IMG/VR virus record: IMGVR_UViG_3300024581_002488
Span: 3,064-67,063 of that record
Length of the DNA: 64,000 bases
Strand: one strand, 5' to 3'
From: a virus
Positions 3,037-45,399 of this stretch are shown here, piece after piece. Position numbers and translations under genes: made by a program. The notes beneath the pieces are model-generated. The model made no database searches, had not been told where the DNA came from, and worked only from the letters and a program-made list of their open reading frames with translations. Each line of letters begins with the position of its first letter. The first letter of the stretch is position 1.

Positions 3037-3105
3037 TCAAAAGATGATGGCATCAAGAATAATAATGGCAATAGACATTGAGATGGCATGATAGAAATAA
3101 GTCAT
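3037..3105 (-). CDS. possible 22-aa hydrophobic micropeptide
   Basis: MTYFYHAISMSIAIIILDAIIF with AGGA RBS; very short. Confidence 0.3.
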   Translation of the reverse strand: MTYFYHAISMSIAIIILDAIIF

Positions 3106-42788: not shown

Positions 42789-43457
42789 TTACTTCCACCC
42801 TTTCAAGTAATTAAGTGCGCGGCCGTAAGTCTGAGGCGGAATGCTAAGCATGGTCTGAATGTCTTTAGGTTCATAGCCTTTAGAGTACATTTCCCACAAT
42901 AGGTCTAGGTCTTTCTTAGGCAGCACGTTGATTTCAACCCCCATGTCAAATATCTTCTTACGGATAACATTCCAGGTCAAGTGCGGAAGCTGGCGCAATA
43001 CTTCTTGCTTACCAAGTTCGTTGACTTGCAGCATGATAGCTTTATCTTCATCTGATAGGCGAGTCATGCCATATTGTCGCACGATGCCGTATCGATGCGC
43101 ACAGCTCTGAATAGACTGCCAGTTGCGCGTATTAAAGACTGCTAAAACTACATGCTTCGGTGCATTAGGATAGATAGCTTGTAAAACCCCAATTTCACCG
43201 GTCGTCCAACGCTCGCCATAGTTAACAGGTATAACGTCCAGGTCACGGCGAACACCGTGCTTAGTAGCCTTAACCTTGATTCCGCGCCAACTTCGGCCTG
43301 GTAATGCAAGCAGTAAGTCTTCAACAGAAGCCCGAGGATACATTCTTTCAAGGATTTCAAGCTCTTTGTCAGTCCAGTTAGGGTTTTGTCGAGGGACTTT
43401 AGCCTTGCGGGCTTCATTCACGTCCAGGAATCGTGGGGCATCTAATAAATCAAGCAT
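42789..43457 (-). CDS. Myb/SANT-like repeat HTH protein
   Basis: WTDKELEIL...LPGRSWRGIK; WTTGEIGVL...RNWQSI; third repeat plus C-terminal HTH. Confidence 0.78.
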   Translation of the reverse strand: MLDLLDAPRFLDVNEARKAKVPRQNPNWTDKELEILERMYPRASVEDLLLALPGRSWRGIKVKATKHGVRRDLDVIPVNYGERWTTGEIGVLQAIYPNAPKHVVLAVFNTRNWQSIQSCAHRYGIVRQYGMTRLSDEDKAIMLQVNELGKQEVLRQLPHLTWNVIRKKIFDMGVEINVLPKKDLDLLWEMYSKGYEPKDIQTMLSIPPQTYGRALNYLKGWK

Positions 43458-44064
43458 AGGCTTTCTCCATACCGTAACAGTTAACTTTAATCAGGCTTTC
43501 AAGGCGGTCAAGATACTTGACTCGATGGGCAGATTTGCCGATGCGTAAAACCTGAGTGCGAAGGTATTGATACTCAGTAATTCTACCTTGGTCATAGAAT
43601 TCCTCAAGCTTCATATAACAGATTCGGTGCACGTAGTTCGAAGAGAGCTCGAATTTCTCTGCAATCTCTGAACACGTCATGTCAGGGTCCATAAACAGTG
43701 CCATGATGAGGTCAATATCTTCATCAGGTAGCATGCAGTTACGTTCTGTCAACCCTAGGCGCTGAGCACGAGAATAGATGCTTACCTTAGTGCGATGAGG
43801 TAGGTGACGCTCTTGAATAGTCTCTGCGCCAATAAGCTTGAACCAGCGACGAAGGATTTGGTCCTCCTCAGGAGTATAGTCTTTGGTATACTCTTTAGTG
43901 GAGTCCTTCTTGATGTCTAGTTTATGCAGACGGGCTTTAATAGCGCCTAGGGTACGACCAGGTAGCTTATCGACCAGGAGTTTATTTGGAGTAGTGGCAC
44001 CGTGATTAAGAAGTATATTGTCTTCGAGAGCAGTCCACGCGTTCATGTTATTGGTTGCAGCCAT
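43450..44064 (-). CDS. Myb/SANT-like repeat HTH protein
   Basis: WTALEDNIL...LPGRTLGAIK; YTPEEDQIL...RTKVSIYSRA; SEIAEKFELS HTH. Confidence 0.78.
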   Translation of the reverse strand: MAATNNMNAWTALEDNILLNHGATTPNKLLVDKLPGRTLGAIKARLHKLDIKKDSTKEYTKDYTPEEDQILRRWFKLIGAETIQERHLPHRTKVSIYSRAQRLGLTERNCMLPDEDIDLIMALFMDPDMTCSEIAEKFELSSNYVHRICYMKLEEFYDQGRITEYQYLRTQVLRIGKSAHRVKYLDRLESLIKVNCYGMEKAYA

Positions 44065-44144
44065 ATTCAGGTCTCGTTGTTGTTTGAAGTTATTGTAATA
44101 ATAGACCGTATAGCTGCTGAAGTAATCAAACATTAAACCAATAA

Positions 44145-44180
44145 AAAAAGGCTCCCTTTTTCAAAGCATGGGAGCCTTTT
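44145..44180 (-). terminator. bidirectional rho-independent terminator
   Basis: AAAAGGCTCCC-loop-GGGAGCCTTTT with A/T tracts on both sides. Confidence 0.88.
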
Positions 44181-44455
44181 AATTACTTACACAATACGTA
44201 GAAACAATCATCGGTGGTTAATCGGATGGTTGTATGCTATTTACAGAGTTTGGGACTAGTATATAGCTGGTAGCCCTCTAGACTCTCGACTGGCGTAACT
44301 TCGGTCTCACGGTCGGTAAACGGTGATAGCAGTTACAATCTAGAGGGCTAGCAGCTATACACTCAGAGGAAAAATGCGGATAAAAACCCTAAGTGATAGC
44401 CGGAGAGTTAAGATTGGATGTGCGACCTACCAATCAACTAAACGTCTCTCGAACT
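44181..44455 (-). ncRNA. candidate structured RNA downstream of the holin-like gene
   Basis: 25-bp stem 44258-44282 / 44339-44363 (one mismatch, one GU on the - strand), nested GTAACT/AGTTAC, plus two further hairpins; no ORF. Confidence 0.6.
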
Positions 44456-44653
44456 CTAGCTCTTTTTATGGAGCTCAGGCTGAGACAGTAAACGGAACAC
44501 GATAAACACTAGACCCATAAGGCGGTAAACCCATTCCGATGCTGTTTGTGGAACTACATTATCAGCCATCCACCACTCAGCAATGGTGTAAATAAGAGCA
44601 ACCTGAACTGAGTGCATCTTAAGAGCTGATTTCCAGTTATCAATAAGTTTCAT
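44456..44653 (-). CDS. holin-like membrane protein
   Basis: MKLIDNWKSALKMHSVQ N-terminus and two hydrophobic helices ending RLLSQPEL, typical of a small phage holin family; AGGAG RBS. Confidence 0.75.
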   Translation of the reverse strand: MKLIDNWKSALKMHSVQVALIYTIAEWWMADNVVPQTASEWVYRLMGLVFIVFRLLSQPELHKKS

Positions 44654-44671
44654 AAACTTACTCCTGAAGGT

Positions 44672-44747
44672 TGGCGATGGATGCGGGACTCGAACCCGCG
44701 ACTCCTTGATTAACAGTCAAGCACTCTACCAACTGAGTTAATCCATC
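44672..44747 (-). tRNA. trnN: tRNA-Asn(GTT), CCA encoded
   Basis: 76 nt: GATGGAT/ATCCATC acceptor stem, CTTGA-CTGTTAA-TCAAG anticodon arm, GCGGG-TTCGAGT-CCCGC T arm, G73 then CCA. Confidence 0.97.
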
Positions 44748-44907
44748 AACTCGAAAGGCTCTCTGTCCGGAGATACTCCTAGACTTCTAATCTCTTACCC
44801 GTCAATATCGTGGCAGCGGGTAACTTCTCACATCCACGCTAGTTTTGATTAGAATTTGAAAACCTTTCGAGTTGCCCTCTGCAGGCTTAGGAGGTCAGAG
44901 GGCTACC
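44748..44907 (-). ncRNA. candidate structured RNA abutting the tRNA 5' end
   Basis: 11-bp closing stem 44748-44758 / 44863-44873, inner stems TTCTAATC/GATTAGAA, TTACCCG/CGGGTAA, GGAG/CTCC; upstream hairpin GCCCTCTG/CAGAGGGC. Confidence 0.6.
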
Positions 44908-44910
44908 CGG

Positions 44911-45309
44911 TTAAGCTGTAGGGTCTACATCTTTACCTTTACCACCTTTGTCTGCTTTAGCAGCTTTGGCTTTGTCCGCTTTTTCTTTTGCTTTAGCCGC
45001 TTTTTCAGCAGCTTTCTTTTCAGCATTGCGGGCTTTAGTGATGTCACGTGAAGTTTGCACCTTCGGATTTTCTTCACGGATTTTGTTACGGTACCAGTTG
45101 ATGGAAGCTTTCTTAGTCTTCGCATCAGGGAAGGCTTTAAGCACTTCAGCTAGCGCTTCATCGTTGTCTTTACCCGCTAGGATTGCTGCAGTAGCAACAC
45201 TTGCGATAGTAGGACCTTCAGAAGGCTGACGACCGCGTGGCTTTTTCACATCGTCTTTTGCTTTAGCAGCGTCTGCTTTACCTGCACCTTTACCTTTATT
45301 CTCAGCCAT
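44911..45309 (-). CDS. Lys/Ala-rich DNA-binding protein
   Basis: GAGGA RBS; KKPRGRQ; helical domain GKDNDEALAEVLKAFPDAKTKKASINWYRNKIR; histone-like KA tail. Confidence 0.8.
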   Translation of the reverse strand: MAENKGKGAGKADAAKAKDDVKKPRGRQPSEGPTIASVATAAILAGKDNDEALAEVLKAFPDAKTKKASINWYRNKIREENPKVQTSRDITKARNAEKKAAEKAAKAKEKADKAKAAKADKGGKGKDVDPTA

Positions 45310-45399
45310 AATCGAGTTCCTCTTGTTTGTTATCTGCATCATCGCTTAAGTTGAATTAAACTATAAACACTCTTAGTTGAGTTGTTAACCAGCAAATGA

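Follow-up and report, generated by a model that had tools for sequence, protein, structure and literature searches.

A phage RNA element with a predicted three-way junction, pseudoknot cap and near-invariant hairpin precedes a tRNA gene and recurs in unrelated phages

We examined a folded RNA element that forms the 5′ leader of a tRNA-Asn gene in a 64,000-nucleotide (nt) stretch of DNA from a marine phage (hereafter the window), which spans positions 3,064 to 67,063 of IMG/VR record IMGVR_UViG_3300024581_002488, a 75-kilobase linear virus record. A reading made from the sequence alone had described the element as a branched RNA closed by an 11-base-pair (bp) stem against position +1 of the tRNA, and had proposed a novel noncoding RNA or a ribozyme-like element liberated by RNase P. 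Our comparison with related phages indicates that it is, almost certainly, a conserved three-way-junction RNA with a pseudoknot cap and a near-invariant hairpin, P3. The element lies on the minus strand of a gene cluster whose layout is shown to be conserved. We infer that the cluster is co-transcribed: a single transcript from a host-type promoter would carry the basic-protein gene, a hairpin, the element, tRNA-Asn, a holin gene, a second structured RNA (element 2) and a terminator. In the direction of transcription, the features are:

45360..45388, minus strand: sigma-70-like promoter, TTAACA-17-TATAGT; its distance is similar across the 9 syntenic loci that were examined
44911..45309, minus strand: first gene of the operon, encoding a Lys/Ala-rich protein of 132 amino acids (phrog_17205, function not assigned)
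44868..44909, minus strand: upstream hairpin, directly after the stop codon of the basic-protein gene, sharing an AACUC segment with stem P1 of the element
44748..44873, minus strand: the element, read from 44873 to 44748, with P1 ending at tRNA position -1 (spacer 0 nt)
44672..44747, minus strand: tRNA-Asn(GUU) with encoded CCA, the sole tRNA called
44456..44653, minus strand: holin-like gene (phrog_1356, PF25612 DUF7940)
44258..44363, minus strand: element 2, a second stalk-enclosed RNA (z -8.6), with a predicted RNase III product from 44351 to 44268 that ends in CCA
44140..44180, minus strand: terminator-like hairpin followed by a U run (inverted repeat I24), at the end of the operon; read by eye, not called by the automatic scan

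Folding favored the minus strand, at -46 kcal/mol (z -5.25, with none of 200 shuffles as good) compared to -35 (z -3.12) for the plus strand. The tRNA-sense strand also folded better than its opposite in 10 of 12 homologues. Since relatives have A-U or G-C pairs in place of G-U pairs of P1 and P3, the element could be assigned to the minus strand. All four helices named in the sequence-only reading are present, with amendments. The closing stem does meet the tRNA without a spacer in the window, and on the minus strand it comprises 16 bp, including G-U pairs, rather than 11. The 7-bp helix TTACCCG/CGGGTAA is one of two helices of an H-type pseudoknot, whose other helix (AGCGUGG/CCACGAU) had been missed. 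The GGAG/CTCC hairpin is the top of a longer hairpin, P3. The parts of the element, from 5′ to 3′, are:

44858..44873, minus strand: P1 5′ arm, RNase III-type stalk; cut predicted from the consensus between 44869 and 44868 (AACUC^GAAAG)
44847..44854, minus strand: P2 5′ arm (UUCUAAUC), with compensatory changes
44834..44840, minus strand: pseudoknot helix S1, 5′ strand AGCGUGG; G-C/U-A, U-A/A-U and G-C/U-A changes relative to the Alteromonas-phage copies
44817..44823, minus strand: pseudoknot helix S2, 5′ strand UUACCCG, with conserved AAG before it and conserved CUR after it
44807..44813, minus strand: S1 3′ strand CCACGAU
44795..44801, minus strand: S2 3′ strand CGGGUAA, with conserved UGA before it
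44785..44792, minus strand: P2 3′ arm (GAUUAGAA)
44765..44784, minus strand: P3, a near-invariant 20-nt hairpin of 4 bp, a bulged A, 4 bp and a 3-nt loop
44748..44763, minus strand: P1 3′ arm; predicted RNase III cut between 44751 and 44750 (UUCGA^GUU), which would leave a 3-nt tRNA leader
44751..44868, minus strand: predicted mature RNA of 118 nt with a 2-nt 3′ overhang

The three-way junction and pseudoknot are supported by covariation of the helices among about 15 homologous sequences, which we cite by L numbers or phage names. Among five close homologues, 219 of 220 cells in paired columns are paired and five pairs, in P1, P2 and S2, are changed on both sides; none of 500 shuffles reached such pairing. 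When 11 sequences were aligned, double changes occurred in 27 of 39 nested pairs, in an alignment that was fitted to the structure. Both pseudoknot helices covary between the window family and the copies in Alteromonas phages, with three S1 pairs changed on both sides and many pair types in S2. This is a two-clade comparison involving few events, in which the search pattern imposed no pairing at those positions. The entire cap is shared with the Alteromonas-phage copies, in the order AGC-N4, RUG, a loop ending in AAG, a 7-nt S2, CUR, S1′, NNUGA and S2′. Other caps are found in L011, L013, L137 and L140, and plain hairpins replace the pseudoknot in syntenic homologues. Cap loops in L011, L140 and L137 contain CUGCAGA or UUGCAAA, which we take to resemble the tRNA-Cys anticodon loop; the window has CUGCCAC at the knot junction.

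P3 is retained in every homologue, while the cap and P1 differ. Its consensus is G-C, U-A, C-G, U-R, a bulged A, R-Y, G-C, A-U, G-C and the loop UAN, which is UAU, UAG or UAC in homologues. P3 is likely to be a recognition element. Its 5′ strand, AGGAGUA (44773-44779), is identical to the holin ribosome-binding site at 44659-44665 on the minus strand, 3′ of the tRNA; P3 variants with AAGAG lose this identity.

To collect homologues, we used both synteny and P3. Syntenic loci were obtained through the basic protein, and L011, L013 and L140 were found in this way; distant homologues were first found with the P3 pattern. Close copies are present in L004, L007, L009, L010, L225 and L229. The same P1 and P3 with another cap occur in L011, L013 and L140; the last is a borderline case (L140/L141, 23.7 bits) whose membership rests on synteny. 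The P3 20-mer led to the unrelated phage-like contigs L133/L135 and L137, to L233, and to the cultured Alteromonas phages A5 (Schitoviridae, N4-like) and V19. The cultured Alteromonas mediterranea phages with copies are OP481051 and OP751378. A5 and V19 carry the same pseudoknot and P3, in copies that are 95% identical although the two phages are unrelated. No clear match to the polymerase or helicase of the window virus was found in the unrelated phages that carry the element; the window virus helicase is about 41% identical to helicases of the Pseudomonas and Xanthomonas phages phiH2, AAT-1 and PaMx28. A model built from the five close copies alone scored the unrelated-phage copies at 35-42 bits and L133/L135 at 25 bits.

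Several P3-like matches were not counted as members. The stretch in the T5-like phages KEY and AAS21 scored only 15.5 bits, and matches in L134 and L136 are confined to P3. Many other matches to the P3 pattern are chance or coding matches (Acinetobacter-prophage-like terminator regions and 132-nt coding repeats in L236/L237/L240). In Erwinia phage KEY (L187, 1428-1540; the same in AAS21 and L188), we observed an unannotated CCA-ended RNA behind tRNA-Ser, with a P3-like hairpin that has one extra U. In L136 (397-688, minus strand), two tRNA-like genes with anticodon-arm insertions of about 70 nt lie beside the isolated P3 hairpin.

Model searches found the family neither in 26 related virus records nor in N4, T5 or T4, and the family model had no match in 151 sampled bacterial genomes of one order, under strict filters and without a positive control. 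The exact P3 pattern was matched nine times in GTDB, in unstructured sequence each time. The element and element 2 had no blastn match among 50,697 phage records; the named homologues surfaced only with 31-nt P3 queries. Covariation, on which the sequence-only reading had partly staked its proposal of a novel noncoding RNA, was found in relatives, and the Rfam search that it had proposed gave no match on the element. That search (Rfam 15, in the window or L233) found no match at the gathering score or at E<10 to any family, including Y RNA, signal recognition particle (SRP) RNA, 6S, transfer-messenger RNA (tmRNA), c4 and riboswitch families, and a literature search for the P3 sequence found no paper. 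Because the helices covary, Rfam has no match and the element recurs in unrelated phages, we conclude from these sequence comparisons that it represents a real, uncatalogued RNA family.

The zero spacer between element and tRNA is incidental, since the spacer varies among relatives (0 nt in the window, L004 and L229; 3 nt in L007 and L009; 4 nt in L010, L225 and L013) and several copies have no downstream tRNA. No downstream tRNA was called in L011, L133, L137, L140, L230 and L232. Overall, the tRNA that follows the element differs (Asn, Gly or Tyr); other copies come after tRNA-Ile or have no called tRNA in their vicinity. An RNase P-released leader would be expected to abut tRNA position +1 in relatives, and this abutment is not conserved. 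In addition, RNase P requires a single-stranded leader from -1 to -4, and a leader paired to -1 blocks the enzyme in E. coli (PMC7897497). In the predicted precursor P1 dominates: positions 44748-44753 are paired at probability 0.78-1.0, so that the leader is paired to -1 and the single-stranded segment is missing.

We examined P1 as a substrate for RNase III, whose E. coli consensus is WNAGWGNNCWUNNN^NAWGNNCWCUNW (PMC4357697). The consensus was scored out of 16, in the register that gives a 2-nt 3′ overhang, for each of the 30 long stems that an automatic search identified in 13 loci. Their scores all lay in the range 10-16, and four scored 16 (null P about 0.001 each); random stems average 9-10. 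P1 scored 12-15 in eight sequences, among them the unrelated L137 with 15, and in one register throughout (null mean 9-10, P(≥12) about 0.15 and P(≥13) about 0.02). The length of P1 also fits an RNase III substrate, which has a helix of about 11 bp or more inside the cut: 11 of its 16 bp lie inside the predicted cut, and 98.7-100% of its cells are paired. The best 3′ cut of the upstream hairpin falls on the same bond as the P1 5′ cut in L007, L009, L010 and L229. Scanning the whole genome loosely for RNase III stalks yielded no information, as the matches about equaled those in shuffles, and the stem-first test was used instead. A long-range pairing (inverted repeat I20), perfect in the window and imperfect by eye in L007, is explained by both stems having the RNase III consensus.

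Since a paired leader blocks RNase P and P1 fits the RNase III consensus, we place RNase III first and RNase P second. Host RNase III probably cuts both strands of P1, releasing a 118-nt RNA from 44868 to 44751, and RNase P would then trim the 3-nt leader. Thus, together with the variable spacer and the copies without a tRNA, these results do not support liberation by RNase P as the first or defining cut of the window copy. The RNase III cut would leave a hairpin-protected upstream mRNA and a tRNA with a short, unpaired leader open to RNase P. Because the upstream hairpin cut and the P1 5′ cut coincide, the freed AACUC end could re-pair into the hairpin that protects the upstream mRNA. In the distant homologue L233, the core is closed by a 7-bp acceptor-like stem followed by A and CCA, and by analogy RNase P-type maturation of this copy is plausible. 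The processing handle thus appears to be exchangeable between an RNase III stalk and an acceptor-like stem with CCA. Phages may therefore package one and the same RNA cargo in forms that either enzyme can release.

What might the released RNA do? We favor the reading, with a probability of roughly 0.45, that it works in trans and serves some host RNA-binding protein as a stable ligand or decoy. The released RNA would fold into the three-way junction, and P3 and the junction would form a binding face for the host protein, to the benefit of the phage. The P3 sequence is kept while P1, P2 and the cap change, a pattern expected of an external partner, and the same core occurs with different handles and with different tRNAs or none, indicating autonomy. 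Recognition by a host protein is suggested by the 95% identity in two unrelated phages of one host species, yet no match in 26 related records; such near-identity points to selection by something in the host. A bolder version, which we regard as doubtful, is that the element is a mobile RNA module with swappable handles and caps. Through RNA mimicry it would neutralize a component of host defense or stress in marine gammaproteobacteria, or its pseudoknot would sponge up a small signaling molecule, and it would so represent a new class of RNA-based counter-defense.

Several observations weigh against this account of release and action. Taken by itself, the score of 12 of 16 for P1 in the window lacks significance; the RNase III consensus is a weak one, and stems that are related do not count as independent. 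The 3-nt leader left by RNase III is shorter than the 4 nt cited as efficient for RNase P (PMC7897497). The invariance of P3 is partly a selection effect, since distant homologues were first found by the P3 pattern. The element has no consistent likeness to E. coli 16S, 23S, 5S, 4.5S, tmRNA, RNase P RNA or 6S, and mimicry of a known host RNA is thus unsupported.

We also considered some specific partners. The window virus genome has no TROVE/Ro60 gene. A retron or other reverse transcriptase-associated noncoding RNA was rejected, as there is no PF00078 match in this 96% complete genome. A CsrA/RsmA sponge, which would carry several GGA motifs in hairpin loops, was likewise rejected: ANGGA occurs in only 2 of 14 homologues, and the GGA in P3, which some copies replace with AGA, is paired.

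One could argue that the element serves only in cis, as a processing and stability cassette that divides the transcript at RNase III sites, shields the upstream mRNA and delivers the tRNA to RNase P, with the excised piece as waste. The stalk geometry, the cut shared with the upstream hairpin and the location in syntenic relatives, with a gene on one side and the tRNA cluster on the other, are all consistent with this role. However, conserved cargo is not something that a stalk requires, and here the pseudoknot covaries and P3 persists in unrelated phages with other handles. Moreover, the stalks in L012 and L014 enclose other cargo, and L138 has no match to the family models (R1/R2). We consider a purely cis-acting cassette unlikely. 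We give less weight again to an aptamer, in which the pseudoknot would bind a small molecule, either as a trans sponge for a metabolite or immune signal or as a switch that gates maturation of the tRNA and holin transcript by sequestering the RNase P leader. Small riboswitch aptamers include compact H-type knots with invariant unpaired nucleotides at the helix junction, and the element has such a knot, with invariant unpaired AAG, CUR and UGA. Sequestration of the leader can gate RNase P in synthetic constructs (PMC7897497). Against a switch, P1 is predicted to form at a probability near 1 and its sole alternative partner is the 5-nt AACUC overlap; there is also no Rfam riboswitch match, the cap is exchanged in L011, L013, L137 and L140, and several copies lack a downstream tRNA.

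The remaining alternatives strike us as improbable. An antisense RNA that pairs with phage or host mRNAs would suit the small-RNA size and the purine-rich unpaired loop L1. However, perfect complementarity to the phage's own genome extends over at most 11 nt, compared to a shuffled mean of 11.8; moreover, the unpaired loops vary from one subfamily to another, and it is the paired part that is conserved. Least probable of all is a new class of self-cleaving ribozyme that assists in freeing the tRNA. Although this is a pseudoknotted, tRNA-adjacent phage RNA with conserved unpaired nucleotides, it contains no known ribozyme core, a nuclease handle already accounts for both of its ends, syntenic homologues have plain hairpins where the pseudoknot would be, and the tRNA lies at a variable distance. 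As for known ribozymes, a hammerhead has a core of CUGANGA and GAAA in a three-way junction, and CUGANGA is found in 0 of 14 homologues. Ribozymes resembling that of hepatitis delta virus (HDV) place their P3-L3 between the P2 5′ and P1 3′ strands, with a loop of the U(C/U)CNCG type. The element has just 3 nt (CUR) at that position, the loop motif occurs in 0 of 14 homologues and Rfam gives no match, which does not fit an HDV-like or theta ribozyme. With neither core in the 14 homologues, and with the element located 5′ of the tRNA, the ribozyme-like element of the sequence-only reading finds no support.

Other structured RNAs occur at these loci. Element 2 is conserved, and its RNase III-type stalk carries an invariant N-C mismatch at the cut site. 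Its predicted products are 81-97 nt and end in CCA in the window, L007, L009, L010, L229, L011, L013, L014 and L142. A weak likeness to nt 25-42 of E. coli 4.5S RNA was seen for the conserved GUUUACC core of element 2 (z 0.4-3.8, a post hoc comparison). Element 2 has no Rfam match, and a pattern search in viral contigs gave mostly chance matches. Inside the tRNA cluster, or instead of it, lie additional structured RNAs that are not tRNAs and in which CCA comes after a terminal stem (L009, 3565-3653; L011, 5575-5680). In the relatives L012 (5490-6240), L014 (5440-5730) and L142 (620-840), the same locus holds two to four RNase III-type stalks in tandem, with differing cargo. In phage A5 (L230, 5845-5905), an unannotated tRNA-like RNA directly upstream of the homologue has D- and T-arm sequence, almost no anticodon arm and no ARAGORN call. 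L233 (8540-9290) contains an array of tRNA-like and other structured RNAs, several of them CCA-ended, without an ARAGORN or Rfam call.

Two neighboring genes or gene groups are also of note. The 132-amino-acid protein is widespread among related phages, with an invariant core GPTIxS...ASINWYRN and the label 'TolA' in some records; it has no Pfam match and possibly binds nucleic acid. Past the terminator, 42789-44133 on the minus strand encodes two tandem D5-like/Myb-repeat regulators.

In its proposed action, the element recalls phage RNA decoys such as pseudo-ToxI and RNA anti-CRISPRs, which titrate a host protein; ToxI is itself an H-type pseudoknot. The element would likewise be a small phage RNA that titrates a host protein, and it has an H-type knot as in ToxI. 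Unlike these decoys, it has neither a repeat array nor an Rfam match to ToxI or CRISPR repeats, its knot is larger and it contains an additional three-way junction. Theta ribozymes of gut phages, proposed to process tRNA 3′ trailers (PMC10879173), are also small pseudoknotted RNAs adjoining tRNAs. In contrast to these HDV-like RNAs, the element lies 5′ of the tRNA, has just CUG between S2 and S1 in place of the HDV P3/L3, and needs no tRNA. The stalk itself resembles RNase III processing stalks of E. coli (PMC4357697) and phage T7 (R1.1 and derivatives; PMC1540722), which also have a long helix and an AGAG/CUCU segment at a fixed distance from a staggered cut. Here, however, the stalk encloses a conserved pseudoknotted cargo, and its 5′ cut is shared with a tandem upstream hairpin.

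The closest parallel in setting is phage T4 (NC_000866.4), whose small stable RNAs rnaC (species 1, 139 nt) and rnaD (species 2, 119 nt) are likewise structured non-tRNA RNAs of about 120 nt within a phage tRNA operon (PMC3014915, PMC9697503). These RNAs have remained without known function for decades. The element is not homologous to them: their folds differ, they lack the P3 sequence, and model R2 finds nothing in T4 at E<0.5 while recovering the A5 control. In contrast to rnaC and rnaD, the element family is mobile between unrelated phages and is closed, here, by an RNase III-type stalk. With a covariation-supported fold, a near-invariant 20-nt P3, predicted ends and copies in two cultured phages, it provides a well-defined test case for such tRNA-operon RNAs.
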